NCBI GenBank assembly: GCA_002010215.1
Contig: MTMY01000001.1
Span: forward strand, 1 to 52,401
Length of the DNA stretch: 52,401 bases
Origin: Archaeoglobus sp. JdFR-37
Lineage (GTDB): Archaea > Halobacteriota > Archaeoglobi > Archaeoglobales > Archaeoglobaceae
Reading direction: 5' to 3'
Below, piece after piece: positions 20,298-46,208 of the stretch. Positions within the stretch are counted from its first letter, which is position 1; each line of letters starts with the position of its first letter. Both the position numbers and the translations under genes were made by a program. The notes under the pieces are model-generated. The model saw nothing but the letters and a program-made list of their open reading frames with translations. It was not told the DNA's origin and did not search any database.

Positions 20298-20384
20298 ATC
20301 AGGAATTTCTGTTTCCTCAACTTCCTAATTTTTAATTTTGAATTAGATATAATAAATAAAGTAATTATAAAAGGAGGTAGATTT

Positions 20385-29984: not shown

Positions 29985-30002
29985 ATAGCCCCGCGGGGAT
30001 TC
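29985..30002. repeat. att site (duplicated tRNA-Gln 3' end)
   Basis: ATAGCCCCGCGGGGATTC, identical to 46191-46208. Confidence 0.93.
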
Positions 30003-30047
30003 TACATCTTCAAGGTTTATAACCCACAACTGCAATGACACAGTACA

Positions 30048-31274
30048 ATGAGTGCTTTGAAGTTCCATTCGGCAGAGGGTTTACTCGATGGACAGATGAG
30101 ACTGGCAAGGAAAGAGCTACCAGAAAAGAGCTATAAGATCCTTGAGAATTTTAAAATGAGACTTCTTTCTGAAGGAATCACTAAGCTCCGGATTGTTAGA
30201 TATATCGGATTGCTTAGAAAGATCTACTCCTTGGTTCCGAGAGAATTTGATGAATGGGACGAGGAATATATCGTTGAAGTTCTTGCAAAGCTTGAGGAAA
30301 CGGATTATGAGAATTCCACAAAGAATGAGTTCAAGAAAGCCATGAAGAAGTTCATAAAGTTCTATTACGGGAAAAAGTCTGATTTACTTGATTATGTTAA
30401 ACAGACCAGGAAAAAGGATTCAAAGATCCCTGAGGTTATCAGAGAGGAGGATATTCTGAAGCTTATTGAGGTTGCAGATAATATGAGAGATAAAGCCATG
30501 ATTGCAGTTTGTTATGAGGCGGGTTTAAGAGTTGGAGAACTTGCCGGGTTGAGAATTAGAGATATTGAATTCTTCACAAATTCGACAGGTGAGATGAGGG
30601 CCAAGATAAAAGTGACTGGGAAAACCGGTGAGAGGGTTATCCCGATTGTTATGAGCGTTCCATATCTTAAAAGATGGTTGGATGAACATCCTTTTAGGGA
30701 TGATCCCAATGCCTATGTTTTTTGTTCGCTTGCAAGGATCAACTATGGTGGCATGATCTCTTATCAGAAGCTCTATGAGAAGTTTATTGAGCTTGGTAAG
30801 AAAGCGGGGCTGAAAATACGGCTTCATCCTCATACTCTCCGACATTCAAGAGCTACAGTTCTTGCCAACCATTTGACTGAGGCGCAGATGTGTGAATTCT
30901 TTGGGTGGGTTCAGGGCTCAGATATGCCACGGATCTATGTGCATCTGAGTGGCAGGGATGTGGAAAAATCAATACTCAAGCTGTATGGTCTCGAAACTGA
31001 AGAACAGAAAAAAGAAGTTGAGGCGAAGCCTAAAAAGTGCCCACGCTGTGGTTACCTGAATGCTCCAACGGACTTCTACTGTGGCAGGTGTGCTTTAATA
31101 CTGGATGAGTCAAAGCGTGTGGAGCTTGAAATGGAAGAGATGAAACTCATGAAGGAAATAATGGGGATGATGGACCCTGAAACTCTGAGAAGAGCGAAGG
31201 ATATGATTGAATTTGTTGAAAGGATGAGGGAGAATCCCGAACTGTTTAACCTTTTATTGCAGGTCAAAGGTTAG
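30048..31274 (+). CDS. int: Tyrosine integrase with C-terminal Zn ribbon
   Basis: AGLRVGEL, GKTG, HTLRHSR, PRIYVHL; CPRCG...CGRC; adjacent to att. Confidence 0.95.
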   Translation: MSALKFHSAEGLLDGQMRLARKELPEKSYKILENFKMRLLSEGITKLRIVRYIGLLRKIYSLVPREFDEWDEEYIVEVLAKLEETDYENSTKNEFKKAMKKFIKFYYGKKSDLLDYVKQTRKKDSKIPEVIREEDILKLIEVADNMRDKAMIAVCYEAGLRVGELAGLRIRDIEFFTNSTGEMRAKIKVTGKTGERVIPIVMSVPYLKRWLDEHPFRDDPNAYVFCSLARINYGGMISYQKLYEKFIELGKKAGLKIRLHPHTLRHSRATVLANHLTEAQMCEFFGWVQGSDMPRIYVHLSGRDVEKSILKLYGLETEEQKKEVEAKPKKCPRCGYLNAPTDFYCGRCALILDESKRVELEMEEMKLMKEIMGMMDPETLRRAKDMIEFVERMRENPELFNLLLQVKG

Positions 31275-31319
31275 TTTTTTAGCGGTTTTATATACTGGAA
31301 ACCTATTTTCTGTTTTAAA

Positions 31320-31598
31320 ATGAGGCGCCAGCACACAGAGATAGCCATAACCCTGGCCCTGTTTGTAGTGGCTGAGCTGCTTTTAGACGCTTTGGCCGGT
31401 GACTGGCTGAAGCAGCAATTACAGAGTTTTCTTGGTGGCATTCCTGCAGCTATCGGTTTTGTAGCGGTGCTGGCGCTGATATGGGTGAGAGTTAGCAAGT
31501 ATGAGGCGTTGGCTGGTTTAGGAGGGAGTAGAGGTAGAAGGAAGGCTGGAGGCAAGAAAGGAGGTGTGAAAAAGGAAAGTAGGAAAGGAGGGAGATGA
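31320..31598 (+). CDS. Small viral membrane protein (2 TM, basic C-terminal tail)
   Basis: Two hydrophobic helices, K/R/G-rich tail; TTTATATA ~25 nt upstream. Confidence 0.7.
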   Translation: MRRQHTEIAITLALFVVAELLLDALAGDWLKQQLQSFLGGIPAAIGFVAVLALIWVRVSKYEALAGLGGSRGRRKAGGKKGGVKKESRKGGR

Positions 31599-31602
31599 AA
31601 GG

Positions 31603-32013
31603 ATGAGTAAGGTAAGGAGAGTTGGAGGGGCTGTAAAAGCCCAGTATGGACATCATTGGGGCGGCAGCTTCAAGAAGGGTCGCATAGGGCTCATGGAAGT
31701 CGGAGCGCTGGTTTTCTATGTACTCGCCAGCATCGCTGCGTTCGGATTGGGTTCGCTGAGTCTTTCATGGCTCACTGACTTTACATGGCTTATCGTGATT
31801 ACAACGATGCTGATAGTGCTTTCTCAGAAGAAAGACGTCACTCTGACGGGTGTCGAGGTAATTGGAGCTATTGTGGCAGTTGTGCTTCCCCTAGCGGCAG
31901 CGGGGCAGCTTACTTCAGTGGGCATTGACATAAGCAGCTATGTCGCTTCAAACGGCTTCCTGCTGTTTCTGATAAGCGTTGCGGGGGCAATTGTAGCAGC
32001 TACTCAGGATTGA
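31603..32013 (+). CDS. VP3-like matrix/internal membrane protein
   Basis: Basic N-terminus plus ~4 TM, directly upstream of the spike as in pleolipoviruses. Confidence 0.65.
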   Translation: MSKVRRVGGAVKAQYGHHWGGSFKKGRIGLMEVGALVFYVLASIAAFGLGSLSLSWLTDFTWLIVITTMLIVLSQKKDVTLTGVEVIGAIVAVVLPLAAAGQLTSVGIDISSYVASNGFLLFLISVAGAIVAATQD

Positions 32014-32053
32014 AGGAAGATCAGGTTTTTCTCAAAATTTTTTACCAAGAGGG

Positions 32054-33574
32054 GTGGGGCAGATGAGCAACAAAAGAAGGGCAGTAATGGCCGCATTTAT
32101 GCTAACGATGCTGATAGGGCAGACTGTGGCAATACCGCTAATTATCCCGCTGGCAATTGGCGGAATAATTGGGGCTGGCGCCATCGGTTACTGGCTTGGA
32201 TTGCAGAAGTCAGAGGAATATCAGCAGCTAATAGCGGATTATGAGGCTCAGCTGACTTCAAACACTATTCAAAACGACATTAACACACGTTTATATCTGC
32301 AAGAGATCTATGCAAGGGACAACAACATAATAGCGCTTGGTCAGGATTTGTTGCAATATTCACGTAATTATGCGTGGGCTCTGGCAAAGTATGAAGCTTT
32401 GAAGGTCTTGGATACTGAGCTAAACAATGGTTCTAACTTCACGACTGCAAAAACTCTGGCAAAGCAGAAGGCACATGATGCTGTCTATAACTACTATGTC
32501 AATGTGACAAAGAACATCATAGCGCTGCATAATGAGACAGTAGAACTGATCTCTTATGCATTGTATAACTATAGCAACATTGGAATTAGTGAGGTTAAAC
32601 TTGAAGGTAGTCATTTCATCGTTGGTTCAGGCAGTGCTAGCGGTTACGTTAGATTTGATAATAATACTGGAGTGTGGAAGAACTGGCGAACAACTTGGGG
32701 ATCTGAGAGACAGACTAATTTCCAGAATGACTGGACAGAGCCGGAAACTCTGAATCTGCTTGGCACGAGTTTTAACATGAGCAGATTAGATTTGATCTTT
32801 GATTGTCCTGATGATCCGGGATATACCGTCCATTTGTATGCCACAAAGGTCTATATTGCTGGTGATTTGGTTTACAATAAGACAAAGTACACAGATGTGC
32901 TTAATGCGATTGACAGCGAATATAACATGATCAACTCTAACATTGATGCATACATTGATGGGCTTGCCCAGAGTTATGTTGATCAGTGGAATATTACGGC
33001 TCTGATTGATCCATACATCTTGGCTGGCTTGTTGAATCAGGATCTCAATGAAACAGGTTATCATGGTTATGCTGCTGCAGAGTTGGCCCTTATGGGTCTG
33101 AACACTACGGGCATTAATACGACTGTTAACATTACTGTCTATGATGGCGGTAATGCGACAGTCATGGAGGGCTGGCTGTTTACAGACTGGCAGGGAACCC
33201 TTGAAACTGGCCAGAATTATACGGCTAACAGCAGTTATAAGTGGTTCTTCGTTACTGATGGGGGTGTCTATGATCTAACTGGCTATAACTTCAGTGTTGG
33301 ATCTCTCAAGGATTGGCAGGGTAACAGTTTGACAAATGTAACCTTGAAGCGATATGTCAGCCATACCGGTGACGTTGTGAAGATGTATGATGAGCTCTCG
33401 CAAATAAGGCAGCTTTACGAGGAGTACATCAACAACCTGCAGGCTATGGCAGCAGGAGGGGGCAGTGGGGGCTTTGACCTCTCTGCCTGGTGGGCTTCGC
33501 TGGATCAGACTGCTAAGCTTGGAGTTGTTGCCGTTGGAGCAGTAGGCCTTTACGCAGTTCTCAGGAGAAAGTGA
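32054..33574 (+). CDS. VP4-like spike/membrane fusion protein
   Basis: Signal peptide, hydrophobic IPLIIPLAIGGIIGAGAIGYW segment, ~18 N-x-S/T sequons, GGGSGG linker, C-terminal TM plus RRK; 506 aa. Confidence 0.8.
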   Translation: MGQMSNKRRAVMAAFMLTMLIGQTVAIPLIIPLAIGGIIGAGAIGYWLGLQKSEEYQQLIADYEAQLTSNTIQNDINTRLYLQEIYARDNNIIALGQDLLQYSRNYAWALAKYEALKVLDTELNNGSNFTTAKTLAKQKAHDAVYNYYVNVTKNIIALHNETVELISYALYNYSNIGISEVKLEGSHFIVGSGSASGYVRFDNNTGVWKNWRTTWGSERQTNFQNDWTEPETLNLLGTSFNMSRLDLIFDCPDDPGYTVHLYATKVYIAGDLVYNKTKYTDVLNAIDSEYNMINSNIDAYIDGLAQSYVDQWNITALIDPYILAGLLNQDLNETGYHGYAAAELALMGLNTTGINTTVNITVYDGGNATVMEGWLFTDWQGTLETGQNYTANSSYKWFFVTDGGVYDLTGYNFSVGSLKDWQGNSLTNVTLKRYVSHTGDVVKMYDELSQIRQLYEEYINNLQAMAAGGGSGGFDLSAWWASLDQTAKLGVVAVGAVGLYAVLRRK

Positions 33575-33607
33575 CCTTTTCCCCTTATTTTTAATATGGT
33601 GGTTTAG

Positions 33608-35026
33608 ATGGCTAGGGGAGCTTTCGTTTTCTTGCTATTTTTCTTGGTGTCATTGGTGCTTATTCCGGCCAGCGCTGACTACATAGACATGTCAAAATTT
33701 GCCAGGAATGCAACGGTTCAGGAGCTTGGGAAGTTCAGCAGCCAGCCAGATTTAGTTTACTGGAGCAACGAGACGAAGAAATTCATAACCGGCACAGAAA
33801 GCAAGTGGGTGATTGATAGCTGGGCTTATGTGGTTGACTATGACCTGAATAAGGGCTATATCGTGGTATATACCAACAGGACTGAGCCAGTAACCATTGT
33901 TGACGTCTTTGGTGGCACTTGGAAGAAAGCAACAATCCATAAAGGCTACAACTATTTCAATTTCTCCGGAGTGCAGGAATATGCCGGGCTTAAGGTTGTA
34001 ACAATAGGCTCACCCTCAGGTTTCGCCATCTTAAAGCAGAAAAGGGATATTTTCTACTTTGAGGACTATCCCATAGCCATCCTTAAATCTGAGCTGGCAA
34101 AGTTTAGCTGGCAGAGGGCAGCGGGAGCCTTGGGGCTTTTCCTTGTGGGCTTCGCATTGAGCTATTGGCTTAAGCGGGAGAGGCTTTTGATCAGCTTTGT
34201 TGACAATCTGGTAATAATATCGGTCTGCATTATTCTAATTCTGGCTGTTCTGAGTGTAGATTATACAACAACGATGGTTAACATCCCTGCAGGCAACTCT
34301 ACAATAGCTAAGGAGATTCCTGCCTTAGAGCTTAGCAAGGAGAAGGTCAGGGATATGTATAACTGGGCTTTCGCTGTATTCTTCATAGCGGGCTTTCTCT
34401 TTGCCATGCGCTTGGCAGACTACGAAAAGCTTTACCTGGCTATCGTGGATTACTCTAAACCAATCAGGCTTTATGAGCTGCCATATCTCCCAAAGAAGGG
34501 GCTCATCAGGGATTTTGATAACAGATTAACCAAGATCAGCTTTAAGGAGGACTTTAAGCAGCTCATAAGCTTTGAGCTGGATGGGAAGAGTGTTAAGGGT
34601 ATTCTGGCGGTGAAGGCAGAGGACAGGGTTAACGACAGCAAGGCGGAGTTTAACGCCAGGTATAGCCTGATTGCTTTCTTTGCCATGCTTATAATCTCGG
34701 TTGTGGCAAATTATCTCAATGCCTTCAAAATAGATCTGGCTTATTCGTTGCTTTTAGCAGCGATAACTGCCTCAATATTCAACATCAAGGCCATAAAACA
34801 GCATTTCAGCCTAGAAGTCACTAAAACAAAGCTCATTGAATGCAGCGAGATAATGAACGAGGATAACTATACCAAGATGCTCAAAAACGCCCAGATCAAG
34901 CAGATTGCCGAGGATTACAACAAGCTGTTGAGGGCTTACGTTAGGGAGAAGATTACGATGCCACGCAAAACTGTCAGTGAGCTTTTGAGCGTCATCAGGG
35001 AAGTAAAGGGTGGTGGCGATGAGTAG
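33608..35026 (+). CDS. Viral multi-pass membrane protein (post-spike morphogenesis position)
   Basis: Signal peptide, extracellular domain, ~5 TM; lies between spike and NTPase. Confidence 0.65.
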   Translation: MARGAFVFLLFFLVSLVLIPASADYIDMSKFARNATVQELGKFSSQPDLVYWSNETKKFITGTESKWVIDSWAYVVDYDLNKGYIVVYTNRTEPVTIVDVFGGTWKKATIHKGYNYFNFSGVQEYAGLKVVTIGSPSGFAILKQKRDIFYFEDYPIAILKSELAKFSWQRAAGALGLFLVGFALSYWLKRERLLISFVDNLVIISVCIILILAVLSVDYTTTMVNIPAGNSTIAKEIPALELSKEKVRDMYNWAFAVFFIAGFLFAMRLADYEKLYLAIVDYSKPIRLYELPYLPKKGLIRDFDNRLTKISFKEDFKQLISFELDGKSVKGILAVKAEDRVNDSKAEFNARYSLIAFFAMLIISVVANYLNAFKIDLAYSLLLAAITASIFNIKAIKQHFSLEVTKTKLIECSEIMNEDNYTKMLKNAQIKQIAEDYNKLLRAYVREKITMPRKTVSELLSVIREVKGGGDE

Positions 35027-35384
35027 GGTGAACTTAAAAGCTAATGACAAGGTAGAACAGCTTAAACGCTTTATCAGTTACCGATTAGGCAAAAAGTTAG
35101 GTCTTGGAACCCTAGTTTTTGATCCTTTTGGTGATAGGCTTATTTTCCTTTTAGACGTTGCAGAGAAGGAATTTGGCAAGGAGGCGAGAGATGAGCTTTT
35201 CAGGTTTCTGGAGCCTTACCACAAAATGAGGGTTTTGAAGACTCTTCAGAATGAGGCAATTAAGCAGAAATTCTGGATAGCGGCAAGCGATCTGGCTAAA
35301 CAGGATGGCGAGAAAGAGAAAGTGGAAGAAAGCGATGATGACATTTTGGGCTTATTCGATGGCGGGGAGGGATTGGATGAATAA
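35019..35384 (+). CDS. Viral hypothetical protein
   Basis: Overlaps both neighbours; acidic tail. Confidence 0.65.
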   Translation: MSRVNLKANDKVEQLKRFISYRLGKKLGLGTLVFDPFGDRLIFLLDVAEKEFGKEARDELFRFLEPYHKMRVLKTLQNEAIKQKFWIAASDLAKQDGEKEKVEESDDDILGLFDGGEGLDE

Positions 35385-36417
35385 GCTCATGAACGTTATA
35401 AATTCGGCAATAGAGAATGATGGCTTTCTTTTTATCGGGATTCTCGGTGATAAAGGGCTTGGCAAAACAGTGTTGGGCATGAACATAACCTTTGACATTC
35501 TGAAGGATTGGCGGGCTGTGTTGAAGCACATGGTGTTTACCATTACCGATTTCAGCAATCTGTCAGGGAGGAGCGATCTGATACGTCATACTGATGGCAG
35601 AATTAAAGCGGTGTTGTGGGATGATTTTGCTTTGCATACATCATCATATGGTTTTACGAAAAAGGGAGAAAGAGAGCAGCTTATTGACTTTATAGAGGAT
35701 TTTGAGGTTGTTAGGGAAGAGGTTGCTGTTCTGATTGTAACTGCTGCCACCTGGGAGATGATCCCACCAAAGCTCAGGGATGCTGCCCATATCTTCATAC
35801 AGATGACAAAGAGGGGAAAAGGAGAGGTATGGGCAAAGCAGAGGGGATGGCTGTTTTTGAGAAAGGATTACAAGAAAATCGGGGAAATCGAGAGTCAGAA
35901 GATTCCTGATGAAATCTATAATGAGTATAGGGAGATGAAGCGTAAAGCCAAGAGAGTAAAGGAGAAAATGGCAGTTATTAAGCAGAAGGAAAGGGCACGA
36001 AAACTGGCATTGGAGCTTTCCTCAGAAGAGTGGAAGGACATAGACCTGTTAACTGCTTATGGCATTCTGGACATGCATGGCAACTTAACAGAGTTCGGGA
36101 GGCTGGTTAAGAAGTATGCGGAAGAGGTTGGGGTGGAGCCTGAGAATGGGCATATAACATATAATAAGTGGTATGTGCGTGGGATGGGAAAATCCCACTT
36201 GACGGAGATAAGCAAAAGCGTGACAAGGGTCAATGATAGAGGTAGAATTGTGGTCCCATATGAGCTGAGGAAAAAATATGGGATTCAACAAAAAAGCGTG
36301 TTCTTGTGGCTTGATTTTGGTAAATTTGTCATAGGCTTACCGGATATCCAGTATGAGGAGTTTGTAAACTTTTTCTTTGATGAAGAGAAAGGGGAAGTTG
36401 AAGAGGTGGGAGGTTGA
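35377..36417 (+). CDS. Viral P-loop NTPase with C-terminal AbrB-like domain
   Basis: Walker A GDKGLGKT, Walker B VLWDD; C-terminal VNDRGRIVVPYELRKKYGI; start moved to MNKLM. Confidence 0.8.
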   Translation: MNKLMNVINSAIENDGFLFIGILGDKGLGKTVLGMNITFDILKDWRAVLKHMVFTITDFSNLSGRSDLIRHTDGRIKAVLWDDFALHTSSYGFTKKGEREQLIDFIEDFEVVREEVAVLIVTAATWEMIPPKLRDAAHIFIQMTKRGKGEVWAKQRGWLFLRKDYKKIGEIESQKIPDEIYNEYREMKRKAKRVKEKMAVIKQKERARKLALELSSEEWKDIDLLTAYGILDMHGNLTEFGRLVKKYAEEVGVEPENGHITYNKWYVRGMGKSHLTEISKSVTRVNDRGRIVVPYELRKKYGIQQKSVFLWLDFGKFVIGLPDIQYEEFVNFFFDEEKGEVEEVGG

Positions 36418-36680
36418 CAGATATACTTAGTGCATCCCCCCTCCTCATTCTTATTGGGTTGGTGGTGCTATCCTGGTTCACAGGCAGCAAGCTGATCAAG
36501 GTTGTTGCTTTGGCGGTATTTTTTGGGGTTCCACTTATCCAAGGTCAAACAGCTTTGCCTAATAGCTTGGATGTCAGTCAGTTTTTGGATTTCGTGATTA
36601 ATACGGTTAGTTACTGGCTTACTGAGGCTCTGGACAGCTTGATTAATTACATCAAGGCCAAGTTGATTGGGAGCATTTAG
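36414..36680 (+). CDS. Small viral membrane protein
   Basis: TTG start overlapping the NTPase stop, GGAGG RBS, 2 TM. Confidence 0.65.
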   Translation: MTDILSASPLLILIGLVVLSWFTGSKLIKVVALAVFFGVPLIQGQTALPNSLDVSQFLDFVINTVSYWLTEALDSLINYIKAKLIGSI

Positions 36681-36697
36681 ATCCTGTTCTCCAGGTT

Positions 36698-36784
36698 TGT
36701 GTCCACACTCCTGCAGAGCTCCCTGTGTCCACATTACGGTCCTATGCTTGTGTCCACAATCCTAGATCTTTCTCTGTGACCACA
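36698..36784. repeat. Array of four TGTG(T/A)CCACA quasi-palindromes at 25-26 bp period
   Basis: Copies at 36698, 36724, 36749, 36775. Confidence 0.9.
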
Positions 36785-36858
36785 ACCAGCATGATAATTC
36801 CTTACTTTCACTCCACCCAAAACTCCTATTTTCTGATAAACTGAGCCTTTTTTCACCG

Positions 36859-37143
36859 GTGATGAGTATGAATGTTGAACAGGATTTGATGGATTACAGG
36901 TTTAGAGCCGTTCTGAGGGCTGGTAAGAAGGGTGACCATAGCATAAGTATAGATGCCAGAAAGATTGCTGTGAGAAACAACGTGGACAGGAAGGGCGGAC
37001 TTTACAGGCTGAACCTTGAGCAAATCATGATTGAGTTTGGTGAGGATTTGGCGATGGAGTTCTGGGAAGTTTTGATGTATCTGTTACCGGAGATGAAGGT
37101 AAAGGAGGCGATTAAGGAGTACGTGGAGAGGATGAGTTTTTGA
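36859..37143 (+). CDS. Viral hypothetical protein
   Basis: 94-aa ORF downstream of the repeat array. Confidence 0.6.
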   Translation: MMSMNVEQDLMDYRFRAVLRAGKKGDHSISIDARKIAVRNNVDRKGGLYRLNLEQIMIEFGEDLAMEFWEVLMYLLPEMKVKEAIKEYVERMSF

Positions 37144-37189
37144 CAGCTCTGGAGGTAAGGTATTTTATTTTTCAAGAAGATGTGAGATT

Positions 37190-37312
37190 ATGAGTGATGA
37201 GCTGACTGATGAGGAGATTAAGGAAGTGGAGGAGATCATTGAGGCATGCAAGACTGGAAAGATGAAGGTTTATACTATTGAGGAAGCAAAGAAGGAGTTA
37301 GGCCTTGAATGA
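37190..37312 (+). CDS. 40-aa acidic RelB-like antitoxin candidate
   Basis: MSDELTDEEIKEVEEIIEACKTGKMKVYTIEEAKKELGLE*; ATGA overlap with the next ORF. Confidence 0.55.
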   Translation: MSDELTDEEIKEVEEIIEACKTGKMKVYTIEEAKKELGLE

Positions 37313-37407
37313 GTTTTGAGGTCAGGCTTTCTGATGTATCTGTTACTGAGGTGAGAGTAAAGGAAGCGATGAAGGAGCTGGATATTGACTGGACTCTACT
37401 GCCATAA
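37309..37407 (+). pseudogene. Possible RelE-like toxin stub fused to a duplicated fragment of the 36859 gene
   Basis: MSFEVRLS start; 37332-37377 resembles 37073-37119. Confidence 0.4.
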
Positions 37408-37467
37408 TGTTAAAAAGGCATTGAGATTGTGAAAGAACCAGAATTTTAACCTCATGGAGTGAACTAA

Positions 37468-37719
37468 ATGATCAGATTTTCAGAACATGCACTGAAAAGA
37501 GCTGAAGAGAGGGGGATAGATTTAAGTCAGGTTGAACTAGTAATCAGGGAACCACTGGAAGTAATTGACGTGAAATTTGGAAGAAAAGCGGTGTTCAGAC
37601 AGCTTGAAGAAAAATATCTCGTTGTAATTTATGAAGAACAAAATGATGAAATAGTTGTAGTTACAACGTTAAAAGTGGATAAGGAGAGGCTGAAAAGATA
37701 TGGTTTCAGTAGAGTTTGA
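37468..37719 (+). CDS. DUF4258-like (BrnT/RelE-fold) putative toxin
   Basis: FSEHALKRAEERGI...LVVIYE...IVVVT. Confidence 0.75.
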   Translation: MIRFSEHALKRAEERGIDLSQVELVIREPLEVIDVKFGRKAVFRQLEEKYLVVIYEEQNDEIVVVTTLKVDKERLKRYGFSRV

Positions 37720-37906
37720 TCCCGAAGTAAATGCGATGTTCATAAGGTTTAAAGACGGAAAGGTGGCAGAATCGGAGCCCTTAGCTGACAATATCATCGT
37801 GGATCTGGATGAGGATGGAGAAGTTGTGGGAATAGAAATTCTCCTGCCAAAGCTCGAAAGGGAGCAAAAGGAGTTTGTTGAAAGGATATTGAAGGCAAAG
37901 GTTTGA
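37700..37906 (+). CDS. DUF2283-like putative antitoxin
   Basis: FDPEVNAMFIRF...IIVDLDEDGEVVGIEIL. Confidence 0.85.
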   Translation: MVSVEFDPEVNAMFIRFKDGKVAESEPLADNIIVDLDEDGEVVGIEILLPKLEREQKEFVERILKAKV

Positions 37907-38073
37907 AGAATTAATGATTTCCAGTGCTCATTCTTCTGTTTGATTCTTCTGTTTTATTTCTCTCAGCTATTTGAGGAGATCAGGAAGTGAAACGGTTTCC
38001 TCCATGGCTGATAGTTTTAACAAGGAAGAGGTTTAGCATTAGAGTTTTTGGTAGGAAAAGTTACTTCTCAAAC

Positions 38074-38394
38074 TTACCGAGTTAGAATTTCTAAAAGCAA
38101 GGAAAACGTGAGCCCTGTCCAAAGACCATATGTTATAACATAAACAACGTTGTAGATTCTCTGAAGTTTCGGACTCATTCTTTTTTTCCTCCTATAGCTT
38201 TTCAGAAACCAGAGTGAAGCTGAGAAAATTATCACAATGAGTAGATATATCGGGTTTTTGTTTGTGAGAAAATTCATGAAAAGTATAATTTGCCAGAGGG
38301 CTGCATTAGCCCACATGAAGTTTTCTATGTCTCTGCTATTGCGGATTATCCAGTTTTCTGTTCTTTCATACATTTTGTATAGGAAATCGCTCAT
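38074..38394 (-). CDS. Cargo membrane protein (~3 TM)
   Basis: Hydrophobic segments; coupled to the upstream ORF. Confidence 0.6.
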   Translation of the reverse strand: MSDFLYKMYERTENWIIRNSRDIENFMWANAALWQIILFMNFLTNKNPIYLLIVIIFSASLWFLKSYRRKKRMSPKLQRIYNVVYVITYGLWTGLTFSLLLEILTR

Positions 38395-38693
38395 CTTAAT
38401 CTCCTCCGGGCGGAATACAGTTTGTAATTCAGGTATTCGATTTCATCTCTTATCGAATTAATTTTTTCGTTTAACATTAGGAGGAAAAGCAGGATGAGGA
38501 GATCAGCCCACATGGCTGGATAAGTTGAGGAGGTTGGCGATACGATTGTAATGCTGATATTGATGTAGGACTTTTTTAACAAGCTATCGACAATGTGCTG
38601 GATGATTGGGATAAGAACTGCGCTTATTATTGCTATTTTCAGGTTTTGTGGTATCTTTTTTATAATCGGTTGTTCCTGGGGTATTTCGTTCAC
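38391..38693 (-). CDS. Cargo membrane protein (2 TM plus coiled tail)
   Basis: Hydrophobic segments; 4-nt overlaps on both sides. Confidence 0.6.
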   Translation of the reverse strand: MNEIPQEQPIIKKIPQNLKIAIISAVLIPIIQHIVDSLLKKSYINISITIVSPTSSTYPAMWADLLILLFLLMLNEKINSIRDEIEYLNYKLYSARRRLR

Positions 38694-39205
38694 CCCTCAC
38701 CCCCCATCAATTCCCCACTAACTCTGTCAAGCTCCTTTGAAGGCATCCTTATCCTCAAATGGTGTATCAGAAAGATCGCTGAGGCAATAAAGAAAATAAA
38801 GGGAGAAGACCCTAAGAAAGGTGGAGGATGGTTTATTTGTTTGAGAAGCTGCTCAAATATTACGAAAAAGCCAATCTCAAACAATCCAACTAAGAAGGCG
38901 AAGAAAGAGGTTATTAAAACTGTTTTTCGGAATTTTAAGCTTAACAATCCAAATATTATTGAAAGGAAAAAGCATATCAGTATTATTTGATAGAGAGACT
39001 CCAGGATACCCATTAAATTTGAGGTTTTTTGACCGTAAGAGGGTATTTTTTCTGTGTAGATGAACAGGTCGAAAATATTGTATTCGACATTTCCCATAAT
39101 GGCAGTGGGAAGAACGATTCCTAAGATGAGGAGTAATAAACCTAAGTATGGTAGCAATCTTTTCTTTTTTGGTTTGGTTTCAGGGTTTTTGGCACTCATC
39201 CTCAC
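38690..39205 (-). CDS. Cargo membrane protein (~4 TM)
   Basis: Hydrophobic segments; GGTGAGG near the start. Confidence 0.65.
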   Translation of the reverse strand: MRMSAKNPETKPKKKRLLPYLGLLLLILGIVLPTAIMGNVEYNIFDLFIYTEKIPSYGQKTSNLMGILESLYQIILICFFLSIIFGLLSLKFRKTVLITSFFAFLVGLFEIGFFVIFEQLLKQINHPPPFLGSSPFIFFIASAIFLIHHLRIRMPSKELDRVSGELMGGEG

Positions 39206-39268
39206 CCACCCTTTACGCCCCCAATAACTTGGTTAGGAATAGACATCTCTCACTATTTTTGCCTTAAC

Positions 39269-40201
39269 TTACCAATCACGAACAACCCTCGTAGATTCCA
39301 CTTCTCTCTTTCCACCTTTTGATATCTTCCAAAGTTTATTAGCTGCTCGTGCTGTGGTGATTGCAATCTCTCTCCAATTATCAACAATGTCCGGGCTATC
39401 ATCGGGATGTGCTCTTTTATTTCTTAAGTTACGTAAAAAATCAACAAGACTTTTAATTTCCTGGGTTATTACTCGTTCACTGTTGTCTTTCCATCTCACA
39501 CGATATAATCCTCCAGTAAGATCTGCAAGGCTTTGCTCATGAAGCGGCTCTTGTTTATCTTTTCCTTTTTTTGTTATGGTTACTCCTAAATTTTTTGAAA
39601 TCCGGCGTAATACACCTTCTAAACCTCTTAAAGCGGCAAAAACTCCTTGCTCCTCCATACCCACCGAGAATAAATCACGAGCAACTCTGAAATCCTTTTG
39701 TAAATCTGGAGGTAAGTCTTTGATTTCATCCATCAAGAACCTATTAAATTCCTCCGTCAATTCGTAGAATCCATCTAAAAGTTTTTTCGCCGCCCTCAGA
39801 TATTCTTTTATTTCTCTCTCTATTCGGCGAGTTTGACTGTATCGCTCCCAGTGAAGATGCAAGTCTTTGGCATAAAGAAAATCGTAAGCATAGCGGCTTT
39901 TGGCTAATTCTGGGAAGTAGAGGAATATATACTCAGCAAGCGAGGATATTGTCTCAACAAGGTCTAGAGTCTTGGTTAAAATATCTTTATTCCAACGTTC
40001 ACCCTCTGGTTGGCTACGGACTAACCTTTCCAGTTTCTCTACACTATCGTAAAACTCAAGGAAGTGCTTTGTGAGATTCATCATGTTATTGAACAGACAC
40101 TCTACCATCATTCCATCATAAGGGCCACGGTGGTCAATGAAGTAGGGGTTCACGTAATTTTTGAATTCATCAAACGAGTTCCAGCTTTTACGTTCTGACA
40201 T
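39269..40201 (-). CDS. Protein with C-terminal HEPN/DUF4145-like domain
   Basis: ARDLFSVG...AALRGLEGVL helix and RNKRAH (RxxxxH) motif. Confidence 0.65.
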   Translation of the reverse strand: MSERKSWNSFDEFKNYVNPYFIDHRGPYDGMMVECLFNNMMNLTKHFLEFYDSVEKLERLVRSQPEGERWNKDILTKTLDLVETISSLAEYIFLYFPELAKSRYAYDFLYAKDLHLHWERYSQTRRIEREIKEYLRAAKKLLDGFYELTEEFNRFLMDEIKDLPPDLQKDFRVARDLFSVGMEEQGVFAALRGLEGVLRRISKNLGVTITKKGKDKQEPLHEQSLADLTGGLYRVRWKDNSERVITQEIKSLVDFLRNLRNKRAHPDDSPDIVDNWREIAITTARAANKLWKISKGGKREVESTRVVRDW

Positions 40202-40204
40202 CAG

Positions 40205-41167
40205 TTACTCACCCTCCCTTAATTCTCCACAATCATTACTGGGTTTCTTTGGCTCTCTTTCTTCAGGTGTCTCATTGCTTTGTTCTTCGTTTTCGATTAC
40301 TTCGATCCATGAGATTTCATCCCAGGGGACAGAGACGATACCAATACTCTTCAAAAAGATGCTCTGGTCAGTCAGATCCCATAGATTACCACTAATCACC
40401 CCACATGAAGTGCAAATTTTTAATTTAGGAAAAATACCTCTGAAATCATCTATTTTGTCGAGTTCGATTAATCTTTGGACTCCCCTTTTAATACGGGTGC
40501 CTATTATACGATCAAGTATTGTAAAGAAGAACAGAAAGAACAGAATTATTAGAGAGTATGCTGAAAGTTTTGTGGGGTAGATATCTGGAATGATATTTGT
40601 GTTGAACAATATTGACAGTGATATTGCTATATAGAGCAAGTTTCCCCAAAAAATAAAACTGTAAAAGACCAAATTTTTATATATGGGTTCTTTTAATTTT
40701 TTAAAATTCATTGGTTCTATTATAACCAAATAGAAAAAAATAATGAGGATAAAAGTTATAACTAGTGAAGCGGTGAGTGCTATGCTTAGTATCATCGACA
40801 ATTCAATTAGTTTTGATAATTTAAAAATATATAGATTGAGAATTGATGATTCATAATACATCTCGATAGTGGCGACGACTATGGAGAAAAAGAGGCCAAT
40901 GAATATTGGAATGATGACTTTCTTAGGCCTTATTTCGTCATGCACAGATAAATAAAAATTTCTTACACTTCTAGACATTTCAAAAATATTTTTAAAAAAT
41001 AGTATCCTTTTTGTCTTTCGTTTGACTAATTCTCCTTTTTTGAGCTTTAAATCATAAACAAAAGCAATGAAAGTCAAAACTCCGATTATAGGAGATACTG
41101 ATTGATTTAACTCCTGTAATAACTGGGTAAATCCCTGAAATACTTGAACAGCCTCAATTGTTGCCAT
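40205..41167 (-). CDS. AT-rich multi-TM protein with possible C-terminal Sm-like beta domain
   Basis: ~5 TM; KICTSCGVISGNLWDLTDQSIFLK...VPWDEISWIEV. Confidence 0.6.
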   Translation of the reverse strand: MATIEAVQVFQGFTQLLQELNQSVSPIIGVLTFIAFVYDLKLKKGELVKRKTKRILFFKNIFEMSRSVRNFYLSVHDEIRPKKVIIPIFIGLFFSIVVATIEMYYESSILNLYIFKLSKLIELSMILSIALTASLVITFILIIFFYLVIIEPMNFKKLKEPIYKNLVFYSFIFWGNLLYIAISLSILFNTNIIPDIYPTKLSAYSLIILFFLFFFTILDRIIGTRIKRGVQRLIELDKIDDFRGIFPKLKICTSCGVISGNLWDLTDQSIFLKSIGIVSVPWDEISWIEVIENEEQSNETPEEREPKKPSNDCGELREGE

Positions 41168-41179
41168 TTAAATAGCCTC

Positions 41180-41356
41180 CTATAATTCTTTGATAATTGA
41201 TAAAAAAATTATAATCATCAATAAAATCCCTATAATCCAAATAAACCAAACGTTAAACCCAGTTATTATAGCAATTTGTGGTAAGACTATGAAGAAGAAT
41301 ACAATTACGAGGAAGATCGCTACTATTGTTTCCATTATAGCTTCTATCAACCCCAT
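41180..41356 (-). CDS. 58-aa two-TM membrane protein (below ORF-track cutoff)
   Basis: MGLIEAIMETIVAIFLVIVFFFIVLPQIAIITGFNVWFIWIIGILLMIIIFLSIIKEL*; GGAGG RBS. Confidence 0.6.
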   Translation of the reverse strand: MGLIEAIMETIVAIFLVIVFFFIVLPQIAIITGFNVWFIWIIGILLMIIIFLSIIKEL

Positions 41357-41357
41357 C

Positions 41358-41450
41358 TTAATCTTCCTCCATCAATTCCCCAATAAACTTCTCTGGATCT
41401 TTAGGAGGAGCCTGAGAATGATATTCCTCAAACTCCTTTTCCATCTCCTC
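41358..41450 (-). pseudogene. Relic 3' end of a paralogous wHTH repressor gene
   Basis: Translates EEMEKEFEEYHSQAPPKDPEKFIGELMEED*, versus EQIEKEFEEYHSHLPKEPDKFINELLEDK* of 41858-42199. Confidence 0.85.
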
Positions 41451-41470
41451 TTGCTGGACGATTTATCCAC

Positions 41471-41815
41471 CTAAATTGGCTCAGCATCGACTTTGTAGGA
41501 ATAATTCACACCGTATTCCCCGTCAAGAGTTAAAGTAACCTTAGTACTTTCACCCTTCTTAAGGTAGATAACTTCAGAAGCAGAATCTCTTGTTTGCCCA
41601 GTATCGGATATAAGCTGTGCAGAGACTTTAATATTTCCATCTACCCCATTATTTTTGACCCATATCTCAATTGTGTATACTACTCCTTTAGAAAGACTGA
41701 AATCTGGTGTTGCTCTTGATTGTAATATTACTGGATCTGGTTTGTTTGGAGTTGAGCAGCCGCTAAACAATATTGCAATCATAGCAACTGCGATTAACAT
41801 GTAAAATCTTTTCAT
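41471..41815 (-). CDS. Viral lipoprotein with a single beta-sandwich-like domain
   Basis: Lipobox ILFSGC; beta-rich mature part. Confidence 0.75.
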   Translation of the reverse strand: MKRFYMLIAVAMIAILFSGCSTPNKPDPVILQSRATPDFSLSKGVVYTIEIWVKNNGVDGNIKVSAQLISDTGQTRDSASEVIYLKKGESTKVTLTLDGEYGVNYSYKVDAEPI

Positions 41816-41857
41816 GGGAATTATTGGTTGAATATCTACTTAAATTTTGCTGTTTAG

Positions 41858-42199: not shown

Positions 42200-42278
42200 C
42201 TGGTAACTCTGTTAGCATCCTATTATTTAAGATGGTATTTATGCCCTAGCTTAACCTCTTTGTTATTTTTGAACTTAC

Positions 42279-42340
42279 TTTGTGATTCCACAAACTATAA
42301 ATATTTGGAATTCTCCAAACTACTTTGGAGGTTGACAAAC
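42279..42340. promoter_or_regulatory. Divergent promoter region with three TTTG-N8-CAAA operator-like sites around TATAAATA
   Basis: Sites at 42279-42294, 42304-42319 and 42324-42339. Confidence 0.7.
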
Positions 42341-42523
42341 ATGCAGGTGTGGAGTAATGTTCCAGATGAGTGGAAACCCAAGATAGAGAAAGCAATGAAG
42401 GCAATGGGCGTAGAGAACAACGTAAGCCGCTACATCTGGCTTCTCGTCTGGCAGAACCTCAGAGAACTTGGGCTCCTTGGCGTCAAAAACGGTGAATCTG
42501 AGAAAACTGTTCTGGAGGGTTGA
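42341..42523 (+). CDS. Ribbon-helix-helix (CopG-like) regulator
   Basis: MQVWSNVPDEWKPKIEKAMKAMGVENNVSRYIWLLV strand-helix-helix pattern; GGAGG RBS. Confidence 0.6.
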   Translation: MQVWSNVPDEWKPKIEKAMKAMGVENNVSRYIWLLVWQNLRELGLLGVKNGESEKTVLEG

Positions 42524-42732
42524 AAATGGGATTTTTGATTGGACTTCTAGAAAGAAGCTCTTGGTTCGGTTTCGGAATAATGATTGGAGCGATGGCAATG
42601 CAGCATTTCAGCGATTTCACGCTCGTATATTCCTCAGGATTCCTGATATGGGCTGCGATGTTCTTCAGTGCCTTCTACTTGTCGGAGAAGGAGAGGCGAA
42701 AGAGAGCGAATAAGACTATTCTGGAGGGCTAA
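42520..42732 (+). CDS. Small 2-TM membrane protein
   Basis: Two hydrophobic helices; ends KTILEG like the upstream gene. Confidence 0.55.
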   Translation: MKMGFLIGLLERSSWFGFGIMIGAMAMQHFSDFTLVYSSGFLIWAAMFFSAFYLSEKERRKRANKTILEG

Positions 42733-42833
42733 GCCATGAACTTCCTCCGAATCCTCTGGCTGGTCTGGACTGGCAAACTGAGATACCCGCCAGTCAGGAG
42801 GTGCTGGGGAAATTACCCTCGGAGGTGCTACCC

Positions 42834-42959
42834 TTGATATCCGTAACCGCTGAGTGCTCCTTTTGCGGTAAGCGACTCTCACAGGATCAGATCATTCTCC
42901 TTGGATGCTGCCCTCTCTGCCAGTCATGCTATGAGAGTTTGAGGAGGGTTAAGCCATGA
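42834..42959 (+). CDS. 41-aa zinc-finger protein
   Basis: TTG start with GGAGGTG RBS; CSFCG...LCQSCYE. Confidence 0.55.
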   Translation: MISVTAECSFCGKRLSQDQIILLGCCPLCQSCYESLRRVKP

Positions 42960-43114
42960 GGGCTGAGAAGTGCCACGCATTTTCTCAGTTTTCACCTACC
43001 CGCTGCCTTCTGCCAAATCCCAGGATTTGTCGTCATTTCGACATCAGAGAATACCTGTGCTCCCAGCCCTGGCTAAGAGAGCTGAGAGGGGAGGTGGGTG
43101 TGGTTGTTCGTTAG
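42956..43114 (+). CDS. 52-aa Cys-containing viral protein
   Basis: MRAEKCHAF...; GGAGG RBS, ATGA overlap. Confidence 0.45.
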   Translation: MRAEKCHAFSQFSPTRCLLPNPRICRHFDIREYLCSQPWLRELRGEVGVVVR

Positions 43115-43238
43115 CGCCCTTGACCTGCTGATAGAGTCCGGCAGATGTCCATGCCAGGGGGAGCTAGAGAAAACTCCCACAGGCTGGAGATGCACCCGCT
43201 GTAGCTGGGAAATTGTAGAGGTTAGTAGAGATGCCTGA
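43098..43238 (+). CDS. 46-aa zinc-ribbon protein
   Basis: GTG start with GGAGGTG RBS; RCPCQGEL...WRCTRCSW. Confidence 0.55.
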   Translation: MWLFVSALDLLIESGRCPCQGELEKTPTGWRCTRCSWEIVEVSRDA

Positions 43239-43410
43239 GGTCAAGTATCCGGGGCTGAACCGCATGGCAGAGGAGTTGAGCAGGATTCTGAACAAACATC
43301 CAGCAGCAGTTCGCAATACCATCCTGAGCAACGTGAAGCACTTGCTTGAGAACATTCCGCCTGATGAGCTTCTCTCAATCTTTGAGGAGGATGGGGAAGA
43401 TGGACGATGA
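43231..43410 (+). CDS. 59-aa viral hypothetical protein
   Basis: MPEVKYPGLNRMAEELSRIL...; overlaps both neighbours. Confidence 0.5.
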   Translation: MPEVKYPGLNRMAEELSRILNKHPAAVRNTILSNVKHLLENIPPDELLSIFEEDGEDGR

Positions 43411-43612
43411 GACTCTCTGGGCTATCGCCCTGAACGGTTCTCCCATTGCTGCCGCCATAGCTCTCGCCATCCTTGATGAGAGGCTTGGAGGGAAAATCTC
43501 CGAGCTGAAAAAGAAGCTGGATGAGATGTATGCTCCCCACCGCAGGAGCGGTATGGCCGGTGAAATCCCGGCGGGGAGCAGGAAAGGAGGTGTGACATAT
43601 GGCAGAGGTTAA
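43400..43612 (+). CDS. Viral hypothetical protein
   Basis: MDDETLWAIAL... (internal start of ORF-track 43346..43612). Confidence 0.5.
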   Translation: MDDETLWAIALNGSPIAAAIALAILDERLGGKISELKKKLDEMYAPHRRSGMAGEIPAGSRKGGVTYGRG

Positions 43613-43919
43613 GGAGGCCGGAAAGATCGGGAAGGTGGAAAAGGTTGAGAATGGAAACGGAAACGGAGAGAAAGCAACCAAAAAGCCAGTTGAGACGGTG
43701 AACATCTTCACCAGCAACGGGATGCTTAGTTTCAGCGTGTGGGAGGGAGGCAGCATAAGCGTCAGAGTTAGCAGGAGGAAGGATGGAAGCGATGAGTACG
43801 AGAACGTCTGGAGCGGCAGGATAAACCCGGTTGACTTCATAAGCCAGTTTGGAGAGCTCAGGACTGTTGCAAAGACAGCCCAGGATGAGCTTAAGAAGAT
43901 TTTAGGCCAGGAAATCTGA
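43599..43919 (+). CDS. Putative PC4-like ssDNA-binding protein
   Basis: KPV...GMLSFSVWE..SISVRVSRR..EY pattern; GGAGGTG RBS; upstream of rep. Confidence 0.45.
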   Translation: MAEVKEAGKIGKVEKVENGNGNGEKATKKPVETVNIFTSNGMLSFSVWEGGSISVRVSRRKDGSDEYENVWSGRINPVDFISQFGELRTVAKTAQDELKKILGQEI

Positions 43920-43946
43920 TCTCCCTTTTTATTTTATGACAGGAGG

Positions 43947-44288
43947 GTGAAGATGCCTGAATATTATCGAAGTATTGAGCTCAACTTCGGGAATGAGGAG
44001 ATTAGCTTTGGTTTTTACTACGACAGCAAGAAGCACAGATACCTGATTTCTATTAACTACGGGGAGGAATATATCAATGTCACGAGAAAAGAGGGAGAGA
44101 CGATTCTCGCTTTTCTGAAAATACTCAAGGACTTCCTTGGAAGTCGAAATAATCTTCGAATTCCTAGAAGCGGATCTTCTTCTAAAGATTCTTCGAGTAG
44201 GTCCGACTCTCGAGACGTCGAAAGAGCATTAGACTTCTTGGAAGAGGCAGCTGCCTCTAAAATTTCTTCGACTCCCAAGGAGGTTTAA
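43947..44288 (+). CDS. Viral hypothetical protein; 3' half overlaps a structured DNA region
   Basis: GGAGGG RBS; Ser-rich low-complexity C-terminus. Confidence 0.5.
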   Translation: MKMPEYYRSIELNFGNEEISFGFYYDSKKHRYLISINYGEEYINVTRKEGETILAFLKILKDFLGSRNNLRIPRSGSSSKDSSSRSDSRDVERALDFLEEAAASKISSTPKEV

Positions 44289-44305
44289 TCAACTCAAACA
44301 TTAGC

Positions 44306-46177
44306 ATGAAGCGGGTTGTTGTTGCTGTCTCTCCCTTCGCAGAACCCCACGAATTTTTAGGAGTAGATGGGGAAGTCTATTCTGTTGTTCCTAACGCTGT
44401 TCTAATTCTCCCTGAGCTTAATGCTAGGGTTTTGGAGAAGCATAAGCTGGCCAGGATAGTTGGGGAATATAAAGAGCCGGAAGAAGATCCCTTTGAGCGG
44501 TGGCAGAGGGAAAGCATTGACCCCCTGGACTTCCTGGAAGACCCATCGGATGATCCTATCAAAGCATGGGCTGAGGCAGAGCTTCAAAAAGAATACTCCA
44601 AACCCTCACCAGACCTCAACCGCATCGTAGAGCTCCGCATGATAGCAAAGGGCCTCAACCCTGTGGCGATTCTAAGCAACGACACAACCAGGCCCTCACC
44701 AGCCACTCCGACCCAATCCCACCAGGGGAGCCCCACGGGTTTATCTCGACCCTTTAGTAATACGGTACAGGCCCAAAATTTTGAGGATTTTATTGAAGAG
44801 GATGAATTCAAATATGAGGGGCAGAAGCTGAGGCGAGCCCTTGAAACCTTCGGGCTTAGGTGTATTACAACGCTGCAGGCTGTCAGGATCTCTGGCCTTA
44901 ATCAGATTGATTTGAGCGGTTATGCGATTCTCGATTATGGTTATACGAGGGTTGAGCTGCATGAGGAGTTTGCCAGGCTTTTACATGATTTGGGGTATAA
45001 TCTCGAGAAGGATTTTGCCTTAACGCTTCTCTTTGAGGAGTATCGTTGCGAAAAGCACGGTTATGTTTACAAACCCGTCATAGACTGGGAAAAGAAGTTC
45101 TTCAATGAGGATGGAGACAGGAAGAAAAGCTTTAAGCTGATTGCCGGGCGCTTGCATCCCTTAAAGAAGTATTCGGACAGTAAGCGCTACTCAGCCTTAA
45201 AGCTGGAGCAGATTAGGGCGATAAATGACGTTGCCAGCCAGGAGGCTGTTAGCTATAGAGTTTTTGATGGGTTCCTTAAGAAGGTGAGGCAGAGGGATTT
45301 AGCTTTGCTCTGGATGGTGTTTACGATTCCTGATAAGCTGAGTAAGGATTTCGCCAGCTATACGCTTGCCCATCCTGGGAAAGTAGAGGATCTGATGAGA
45401 AAAGCTGTTAGATCCACCCTTAAGAGGTTCCTTAGGAAATACCTGAAGAAACATGAGAACGTTCCATTATATGGCGATTTCAAGATGGGCGGGCTTATGA
45501 ACATCCATATCTGGAGCAGCAGCGAGCCAACAAAGCCCCATTTCCACGTTCACGTCATGCTCTGGAACATCGTTATCCATGAGGGAGAGATTATCAGGTT
45601 CAGCCCCTATTTCCCCAAGGAGTGGCTTGCAGAGCTCAGGAAGCTCTGGGCCAGTGAGCTCAGGAAGAGGGTTAAGAAGAGCGACATTTACGTTTGGACT
45701 GACCCCTTCCGCTGGGAGGAGGATTTTGATTCTTTCAACATCTACACCTCATACACCTGGCTGGACAAGGATGAGAGCGGAGAGCTGGAGGAGGCTGGCA
45801 GAATTGCTCATCATCTCCGCTACAACTCCCGAAAGGCTGTTGTTGATCTCAACGAGTTCTTTTACTCTGGAGTTAGGGCTGATGAGCTTACTGACAAGGA
45901 GAAAGAGTGGGTGAAGTTTCTCCTTGAATACAGCAACAGAACCAGCAATTTTGGCTTTATGAACAACTGGCGGAAGGTGTTTGGGATAAGGAGAGATGTG
46001 GTAGAAGAGTTTCTGGAGAGGCTCCAGAAGGAGCATTATGAGTATTGCCCGATCTGTAAGGCTAAGCTGGAATACGTCAGGCTCACCACTATTGATGAGG
46101 TGGTGAGGCGTAGGCGTCTGTTGGTGCTGTGGTATTTTGATAGAAGGATGAATATTGAGGTTTGGAGGGGGTTATAG
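44306..46177 (+). CDS. rep: HUH rolling-circle replication initiator with N-terminal GINS-B-like domain
   Basis: Motif I MVFTIP, motif II PHFHVHV, motif III LRYNSRK, C-terminal CPIC. Confidence 0.8.
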   Translation: MKRVVVAVSPFAEPHEFLGVDGEVYSVVPNAVLILPELNARVLEKHKLARIVGEYKEPEEDPFERWQRESIDPLDFLEDPSDDPIKAWAEAELQKEYSKPSPDLNRIVELRMIAKGLNPVAILSNDTTRPSPATPTQSHQGSPTGLSRPFSNTVQAQNFEDFIEEDEFKYEGQKLRRALETFGLRCITTLQAVRISGLNQIDLSGYAILDYGYTRVELHEEFARLLHDLGYNLEKDFALTLLFEEYRCEKHGYVYKPVIDWEKKFFNEDGDRKKSFKLIAGRLHPLKKYSDSKRYSALKLEQIRAINDVASQEAVSYRVFDGFLKKVRQRDLALLWMVFTIPDKLSKDFASYTLAHPGKVEDLMRKAVRSTLKRFLRKYLKKHENVPLYGDFKMGGLMNIHIWSSSEPTKPHFHVHVMLWNIVIHEGEIIRFSPYFPKEWLAELRKLWASELRKRVKKSDIYVWTDPFRWEEDFDSFNIYTSYTWLDKDESGELEEAGRIAHHLRYNSRKAVVDLNEFFYSGVRADELTDKEKEWVKFLLEYSNRTSNFGFMNNWRKVFGIRRDVVEEFLERLQKEHYEYCPICKAKLEYVRLTTIDEVVRRRRLLVLWYFDRRMNIEVWRGL

Positions 46178-46190
46178 ACCTTAGAGGAGG

Positions 46191-46208
46191 ATAGCCCCGC
46201 GGGGATTC
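46191..46208. repeat. att site overlapping the tRNA-Gln 3' end
   Basis: ATAGCCCCGCGGGGATTC, identical to 29985-30002. Confidence 0.93.

Follow-up and report, generated by a model that had tools for sequence, protein, structure and literature searches.

An element of 16,224 bp sits at the 3' end of the tRNA-Gln(TTG) gene of Archaeoglobus sp. JdFR-37, on contig MTMY01000001.1 of assembly GCA_002010215.1, and the locus raises the question of whether this is a new virus and whether it still functions as one (the window is the whole stretch analysed, positions 1 to 52,401 of the contig). The element is, with virtual certainty, the published provirus Thalassapleovirus 2 (ThalV2), already known and named. 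Window positions 29985-46190 and GenBank BK065158 differ at 0 of 16,206 bases, and tblastn of the spike and the replication protein (Rep) against phage records returned Pleomorphic virus ThalV2 (BK065158) at 99.8-100%. In Table S2 of Baquero, Bignon and Krupovic (2024; PMC10919331), ThalV2 appears as complete at 29985-46208, with a length of 16,224 bp, the same 18-bp att in tRNA-Gln and Archaeoglobus sp. JdFR-37, a metagenome-assembled genome, as host; the host class Archaeoglobi is given by the GenBank record together with that table. ThalV2 is also the exemplar of Geogavirus pacificense in the family Thalassapleoviridae (Table 4 of the 2025 ICTV summary, PMC12451623), so identity to BK065158 places the element in that species directly. 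The initial annotation had entertained a possible new family member, which the sequence identity, the Table S2 listing and the exemplar status together rule out. As a discovery the provirus therefore adds nothing, since it is an ICTV species that already has a name and an annotation of each gene: the labels in Table S3 of PMC10919331 include integrase, VP3, VP4, ORF6 homologue, AAA+ ATPase, YefM-like, RelE-like, HEPN, winged helix-turn-helix (wHTH), ribbon-helix-helix (RHH) and HUH Rep. Two details that we did not find in the paper of Baquero et al. may be of value to specialists, namely a Gins51C-like domain in the Rep and a sister provirus in the same tRNA gene.

A Gins51C-like domain at the N-terminus of Rep

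The Rep, gp28, was initially annotated as an HUH protein, and its motifs bear this out: H412-x-H414-x-H416 and Y506-x3-K510 are invariant in 14/14 homologues. It is related, as expected of a Geogavirus, to the Reps of pGT5/pTP1 and also pTN1, at 23-25% identity over residues about 216-592 (about half its length), and its structural model matched HUH nucleases with Z scores of 7.2-8.0 (NS1 Z 8.0, TrwC Z 7.8). The structural side of this assignment is weakened on two counts, since Foldseek returned no hit for the Rep model at E<=0.001 and a Z score under 8 may reflect a common arrangement.

The N-terminus was assessed with a profile built from columns 1-58 of an alignment of 14 Reps, searched against the 10,736 six-frame open reading frames (ORFs) of the host assembly. 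It matched only the Rep itself and the C-terminus of one host ORF (E 1.6e-8), the next ORF scoring E 0.16 and the best reversed-ORF control E 0.0027. The matched host ORF follows priS and resembles two Pfam families, each slightly short of its curated cut-off: Gins51_C (E 1.3e-5) and Sld5 (E 2.7e-4). Of the 92 family genomes, 77 match the full Rep profile, in most cases at positions about 10-55 and in frames of about 170-220 residues, and of these 77 matches only that in the host assembly was confirmed as Gins51. Modelled residues 1-58 superpose on Thermococcus kodakarensis Gins51C (5GHR_B) with Z 6.3 and a root-mean-square deviation of 2.0 A over 54/55 residues, and on 3ANW_A with Z 5.7. Searched directly by sequence, the 59-mer found no GINS entry in Pfam or PDB, a PDB search with the Rep alignment gave nothing significant, and an Atlas query with Rep 1-60 stayed below 0.8. 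Sequence homology and predicted fold, the two marks of a Gins51 C-terminal domain, are thus both present, and a Gins51C fold for Rep 1-58 is well supported by profile and model.

The range of this fusion was surveyed in the 92 family genomes and three plasmids. The domain is present in the Reps of GacPV1, GahPV1, ThalV1 and the sister provirus, is kept by every one of the 14 aligned Reps (of which one is truncated), and went undetected in pGT5, pTP1, pTN1, AvPV1 and ApPV1; a scan of IMG/VR with the Rep gave no match. The word ‘GINS’ is absent from the text and supplements of PMC10919331, and literature searches, whose scope left out subscription journals and figure images, found no paper on a GINS domain belonging to a viral or plasmid Rep.

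Gins51C of T. kodakarensis binds both PolD DP1N and GAN, on opposite faces (PMC9023282). Complex prediction for Rep 1-58 with the host DP1N scored 0.42 against 0.00 for three controls; all three runs passed the mark, with contact agreement of at least 87% and a partner pLDDT (predicted local distance difference test) of at least 80. Two considerations reduce what this score can carry: scores of 0.60 or less came from 18 of 157 solved complexes and from both of the mismatches, out of 215, that passed, and the pass may reflect the predictor's memorisation of a like complex (DP1N-Gins51C-GAN) that has been solved. On this weak support we hypothesise that Rep 1-58 binds host PolD DP1N, and that Rep may thereby recruit PolD. 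A somewhat better than even chance is given to the domain having the Gins51C fold and serving otherwise, whether by binding GAN or another partner, by competing with the host GINS or in a purely structural role. The two partners of the T. kodakarensis domain, the occurrence of the same fold on PriS (1ZT2), the plasmid Reps with no such domain detected and the weakness of the DP1N prediction all fit that alternative, whilst retention throughout the 14 Reps and the agreement of the three runs, with controls at zero, speak for PolD recruitment. How archaeal rolling-circle elements recruit the host replisome is poorly understood, and the fusion gives a concrete, inexpensive way into the question through small purified domains.

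A sister provirus and reuse of the tRNA-Gln site

A metagenome scan with gp05 found a locus (L023) whose host flanks are identical to the window at 6486/6491 and 807/807 bases, and which carries at positions 6492-20620 a complete att-to-att provirus of 14,115 bp in the same tRNA-Gln. The two proviruses are close in the integrase (96%), gp05-gp16 (92-100%), gp24-gp26 (98-99%) and Rep (96-97%), and far apart in VP3 (43-46%), VP4 (47-53%), the wHTH protein (60%) and the RHH protein (73%); gp02 is 88% identical over 72% of its length, and gp17, gp18, gp20, gp23 and gp27 have no match in the sister. With ThalV1 the sister shares 83% identity in VP3 and 73% in VP4. The VP4 of ThalV2 is nearer to GacPV1/GahPV1 (63-66%), and its VP3 is an outlier. 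Approximately unbiased (AU) tests on 8-row trees reject a clade of ThalV2 and the sister for VP4 (p 3e-32) and for VP3 (p 3e-4, with long branches present), and the gp05 tree groups the two at 93/100, a node that is not starred (6 rows; two partial rows left out). A sister with another gene content in an almost identical host background implies that gain or exchange was recent. The contig of the sister is absent from Table S2 of PMC10919331, and two of three sister VP4 motifs as well as the contig number are absent from the supplements of that paper, the third motif matching a different VP4.

L023 is a metagenome contig. The segments replaced in the sister are seen again in one 44-kb contig of run X3; runs X4 and X5, under other study codes, share some of the joints and indels.

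The replaced spike varies most in one region. Residues 161-280 of VP4 form beta strands in the model, and identity there is only 9-42% in each of five pairwise comparisons. We infer that these residues correspond to the N2 subdomain, proposed in PMC6381117 as receptor-binding. Recombination between co-occurring relatives may swap VP3, VP4 and cargo and would thereby alter receptor use. A same-site sister with a different spike offers a natural comparison for which region of VP4 sets receptor use, and cautions against taking VP4 trees as virus trees at short range.

Remnants of related elements were found at the same tRNA-Gln in two relatives, between the subtilase gene and the tRNA. Genome G015 has a decayed relic with the wHTH and RHH genes and the Rep 3' end (L050:17125-19265), and G001 has a decayed relic of the Rep 3' end (L051:77-150), which indicates that the site has been reused across two genera. 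There is accordingly no clean empty site in either of the relatives examined. A VP4 match was found in 14 of 92 family genomes, the host of ThalV2 included. More distant VP4 homologues in other family genomes (L042, L045, L046, L047, L006 and L008) lie on contigs that we did not recognise in Table S2 of PMC10919331, and are possibly undescribed thalassapleovirid proviruses.

Taking Rep and sister as a pair, we tentatively propose, at rather less than an even chance, that Geogavirus Reps carry a captured mimic of the GINS B-domain which docks PolD (perhaps GAN) at the nicked origin, bypassing GINS, and that a swarm of ThalV2-like viruses in one host population exchanges entire VP3 and spike genes at one tRNA site.

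Particle genes and the possible activity of ThalV2

The gene order is as the initial annotation described, with VP3, VP4, gp05 and the ATPase followed by divergent wHTH and RHH genes and the HUH Rep, and its view that the core genes show no obvious disruption holds, since all 28 of the 28 annotated ThalV2 ORFs lack an internal stop. The GC content is 43.0% in the element, 36.5% in its cargo block and 44.8% in the genome. A membrane-embedded VP3 lies upstream of the spike, as in Pleomoviria (Trapavirae): gp03 is 35-48% identical to annotated family VP3s, and Table S3 of PMC10919331 assigns it to VP3 by HHsearch at 91.7%. Downstream of the spike stand an ORF6 homologue and an NTPase, as in the Pleolipoviridae block, the latter (gp07) with Walker A and Walker B motifs and a match to phrog_5484 (E 1e-22).

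The spike, gp04, is 40-63% identical to the VP4s of ApPV1/GacPV1/GahPV1, has a hypervariable beta region at residues about 161-280, and contains 18 sequons by our count (17 in Table S5 of PMC10919331). Its AlphaFold2 model, built from 23 homologues, has a mean pLDDT of 65, and in Foldseek it had only four hits at E<=0.001, all to the VP5 of HRPV-6 or HRPV-2 (best E 5.8e-10). This comparison with the haloarchaeal fusogens, which the initial annotation had proposed, supports a VP4/VP5-type fusion protein as found in Pleomoviria, and with the homology to family VP4s it upholds the placement in Thalassapleoviridae. The likeness to AvPV1 suggested at the outset stands at the level of the family; the nearer relatives are the Geoglobus viruses GacPV1/GahPV1 (VP4 63-66%) rather than AvPV1 (27%). 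The fold assignment has evidence on the other side too: whole-chain TM-scores to VP5 are low at 0.27-0.31 (0.64 against a 229-residue chain), pLDDT is under 50 in 139 of 503 residues, and a PDB sequence search with VP4 gave nothing significant.

ThalV2 is probably still a functional temperate, non-lytic enveloped virus. The integrase would recombine inside a core no longer than 14 bp at the 3' end of tRNA-Gln, restoring the tRNA; the wHTH/RHH pair would set lysogeny versus production; the excised circle, nicked by Rep, would be copied by rolling-circle replication; and VP3, VP4, gp05 and the ATPase would build budding pleomorphic particles that leave without lysis, as for AvPV1, which excises and produces particles without lysis (PMC10919331).

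Against an active ThalV2 it counts that PMC10919331 tested activity for AvPV1 only, a virus that encodes no recognisable Rep, so that excision, replication and particles would be carried over to ThalV2 by analogy, and that the relics in G015 and G001 show such elements to die at this tRNA. Joints of attP or attB type were absent from the 11 joints listed for runs X1-X4 and from the 15 shown out of 21 for X5, X6, X7 and X11, which is no evidence either way because the assembled Logan contigs drop rare forms and X1 and X2 carry a flag as possible sources. The CRISPR array of the host (G000:C49:89-3863; one array, about 60 spacers) has no spacer matching ThalV2 or the sister, two 15-of-39-nt matches falling on other loci.

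The main alternative, a recently silenced or defective provirus with its genes still open, kept for a time by toxin-antitoxin-like and HEPN cargo, we consider unlikely. The relics at the same tRNA-Gln and the presence of gp12/gp13 and gp17 in the cargo are what it would lead one to expect, and against it are set the open ORFs, the perfect att pair, the intact catalytic residues, and the recent gain or exchange implied by the sister. It is very improbable that the element is an integrative rolling-circle plasmid, or that the sister is a metagenome misassembly. The plasmid-related core of Rep and the single metagenome contig L023 would fit these, and they are opposed by the complete morphogenetic module with its VP5-like fold, which defines membership of Pleomoviria, and by the recurrence of the replaced segments in X3, with shared joints in X4 and X5.

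Integration site, remaining features and comparison with known systems

The perfect 18-bp direct repeat from the tRNA 3' end, initially annotated as bracketing the element, was found exactly at both ends. It is the longest exact direct repeat in the window and has only these two copies in the 52-contig, 1.97-Mb assembly. An exact repeat of at least 18 bp arose in 4 of 100 order-3 Markov simulations of the window, so its length is only modestly unusual; what marks the repeat as att is its place, at the 3' end of the tRNA and 45 nt ahead of the integrase. A 17-bp repeat at 32038/41963 was rejected as chance level (at least 17 bp in 15 of 100 simulations). Only the first 14 bp of the att copies are common to both ends in the sister, likewise 14 bp in ThalV1, and Table S2 of PMC10919331 gives 12 bp for GacPV1, so strand exchange is likely to fall within 14 bp.

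The unsplit tyrosine integrase was confirmed (Pfam Phage_integrase E 4.7e-25), with canonical catalytic residues R161, E164, K188/K192, H262, R265, W287 and Y297. By the criteria given in PMC5861418, SSV-type integrases have att inside the gene, which is split on integration, and an R..KxxR..Y signature, and SNJ2-type enzymes replace Glu/Asp by Gly/Ala and His/Trp by Ala/Val. In gp01 att ends 45 nt upstream of the ATG, the tetrad has HxxR, and E164 and W287 are kept; gp01 is thus of neither type, the catalytic residues being retained. A TATA-like box conserved in ThalV1 and the sister is likely the integrase promoter, inside the element; the bacterial promoter scan is unsuited to archaea.

Features of the ThalV2 provirus, in window coordinates
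Feature	Position	Strand	Remarks
att copy distal from the tRNA	29985..30002	+	18 bp
TATA-like box	30016..30022	+	25 nt before the integrase ATG
gp01, unsplit tyrosine integrase	30048..31274	+	408 aa; C-terminal zinc ribbon
gp02	31320..31598	+	two predicted transmembrane (TM) helices; conserved in family
gp03, VP3-like matrix membrane protein	31603..32013	+	4 predicted TM
gp04, VP4-like spike/fusogen	32063..33574	+	503 aa; annotated ATG, in-frame GTG at 32054
gp05, HRPV-1 ORF6-like membrane protein	33608..35026	+	ORF6 label from Table S3 (PMC10919331)
gp06, gp07 AAA+ ATPase, gp08 membrane protein	35019..36680	+	ATPase 35377-36417
Four TGTG-NN-CACA palindromes	36698..36784		25-26 bp spacing
gp09-gp13	36889..37906	+	YefM-like gp10, RelE-like DUF4258 gp12, DUF2283 gp13
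gp14-gp20, variable cargo	38074..41815	-	low GC 0.28-0.40; membrane proteins and HEPN gp17
gp17, HEPN-domain protein	39269-40201	-	RNKRAH motif at residue 260
Degenerate copy of gp21 wHTH gene 3' end	41358..41440	-	72% identity
gp21 wHTH / gp22 RHH, divergent	41858-42199 / 42341-42523	- / +	141 bp apart
gp23-gp27 and small unannotated zinc-finger-like ORFs	42526..44288	+	upstream of Rep
gp28, HUH rolling-circle Rep	44306..46177	+	623 aa
Rep residues 1-58, Gins51 C-terminal (B-domain)-like	44306..44479	+	profile and model
att copy within tRNA 3' end (T-loop to discriminator)	46191..46208	+	18 bp
Intact host tRNA-Gln(TTG), integration target	46192..46264	-	sole tRNA gene in window

The TGTG-NN-CACA palindromes are likely protein-binding sites. 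The sister has arrays of 4 plus 9 at about 18495-18697 of L023, the second just upstream of Rep and inverted, and ApPV1 has 3 (L032:6870-6932), with an array spacing of about 26 bp. The end of host contig C28 (L033:7391-7957) carries 10, in two arrays flanking a small one-stop frame with 39% identity to what takes the place of gp27 in the sister; elsewhere in the genome, copies are isolated and single.

Amongst the cargo, gp12/gp13 resemble a toxin-antitoxin pair, and a 50-bp internal duplication (37070-37119 versus 37329-37377, 84% identical) lies between the end of gp09 and gp11. PADLOC on 13 proteins gave weak hits only (best E 0.001), and in the Atlas gp17 lies near DUF4145 clusters and others that are unnamed (0.92-0.95); we therefore assign no defence role. 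The degenerate wHTH 3' end precedes gp19, and the gp19 homologue of the sister is preceded by the wHTH gene itself, an arrangement which suggests that recombination brought in gp20 together with a new wHTH gene; weaker resemblances at the gp18 and gp16 ends are below significance. Of the regulatory switch in the initial annotation, the divergent DNA-binding genes gp21/gp22 stand, and by their anatomy they are a candidate for that role.

On the host side, minus-strand ORFs for a secreted-looking subtilase (28062-29369; Pfam S8 E 1e-60) and a short matrixin-like protein (29509-29805) flank the provirus, and the subtilase orientation is reversed in G015. A second tyrosine integrase (G000:C25:1485-2734), 31% identical to gp01 and beside a tRNA-Arg, is probably part of another integrated element.

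Compared with known systems, the element is BK065158 (Geogavirus pacificense) itself, in all 16,206 of 16,206 bases, in coordinates, att and tRNA target. GacPV1 (Geogavirus atlanticense), GahPV1 (G. guaymasense) and ThalV1 share its gene order, gp05 (78-81%) and Rep (50-59%, with the same N-terminal domain), but differ in cargo and in a VP3 only 43-47% identical; GacPV1 and ThalV1 are also listed in tRNA-Gln in Table S2 of PMC10919331, whereas GahPV1 occupies tRNA-Trp and its integrase is non-orthologous. The one member of the family to have been isolated, AvPV1 (Avenivirus atlanticense), is likewise a tRNA-integrated provirus and has the seven core genes gp02-gp08 in common (27-54%), but it differs from ThalV2 in carrying a second spike-like gene, in its SSV1-like integrase and in lacking an HUH Rep, and its activity is proven where ThalV2 is known from its genes. 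The haloarchaeal Pleolipoviridae (HRPV-2, HRPV-6, SNJ2) have the same VP3/VP4/ORF6/NTPase module and a VP5-type fold like that predicted here, but form a separate family and phylum, with spikes about 23-31% identical over parts, and SNJ2-type integrases have Gly/Ala and Ala/Val where that of ThalV2 keeps Glu and Trp. The Thermococcales plasmid Reps (pGT5/pTP1/pTN1) share the HUH core with the ThalV2 Rep but not, as far as detected, its Gins51C-like domain, and the archaeal Gins51 C-terminal (B) domain, which Rep 1-58 resembles in profile and predicted fold, is here placed at the N-terminus of a viral Rep without the GINS A-domain.

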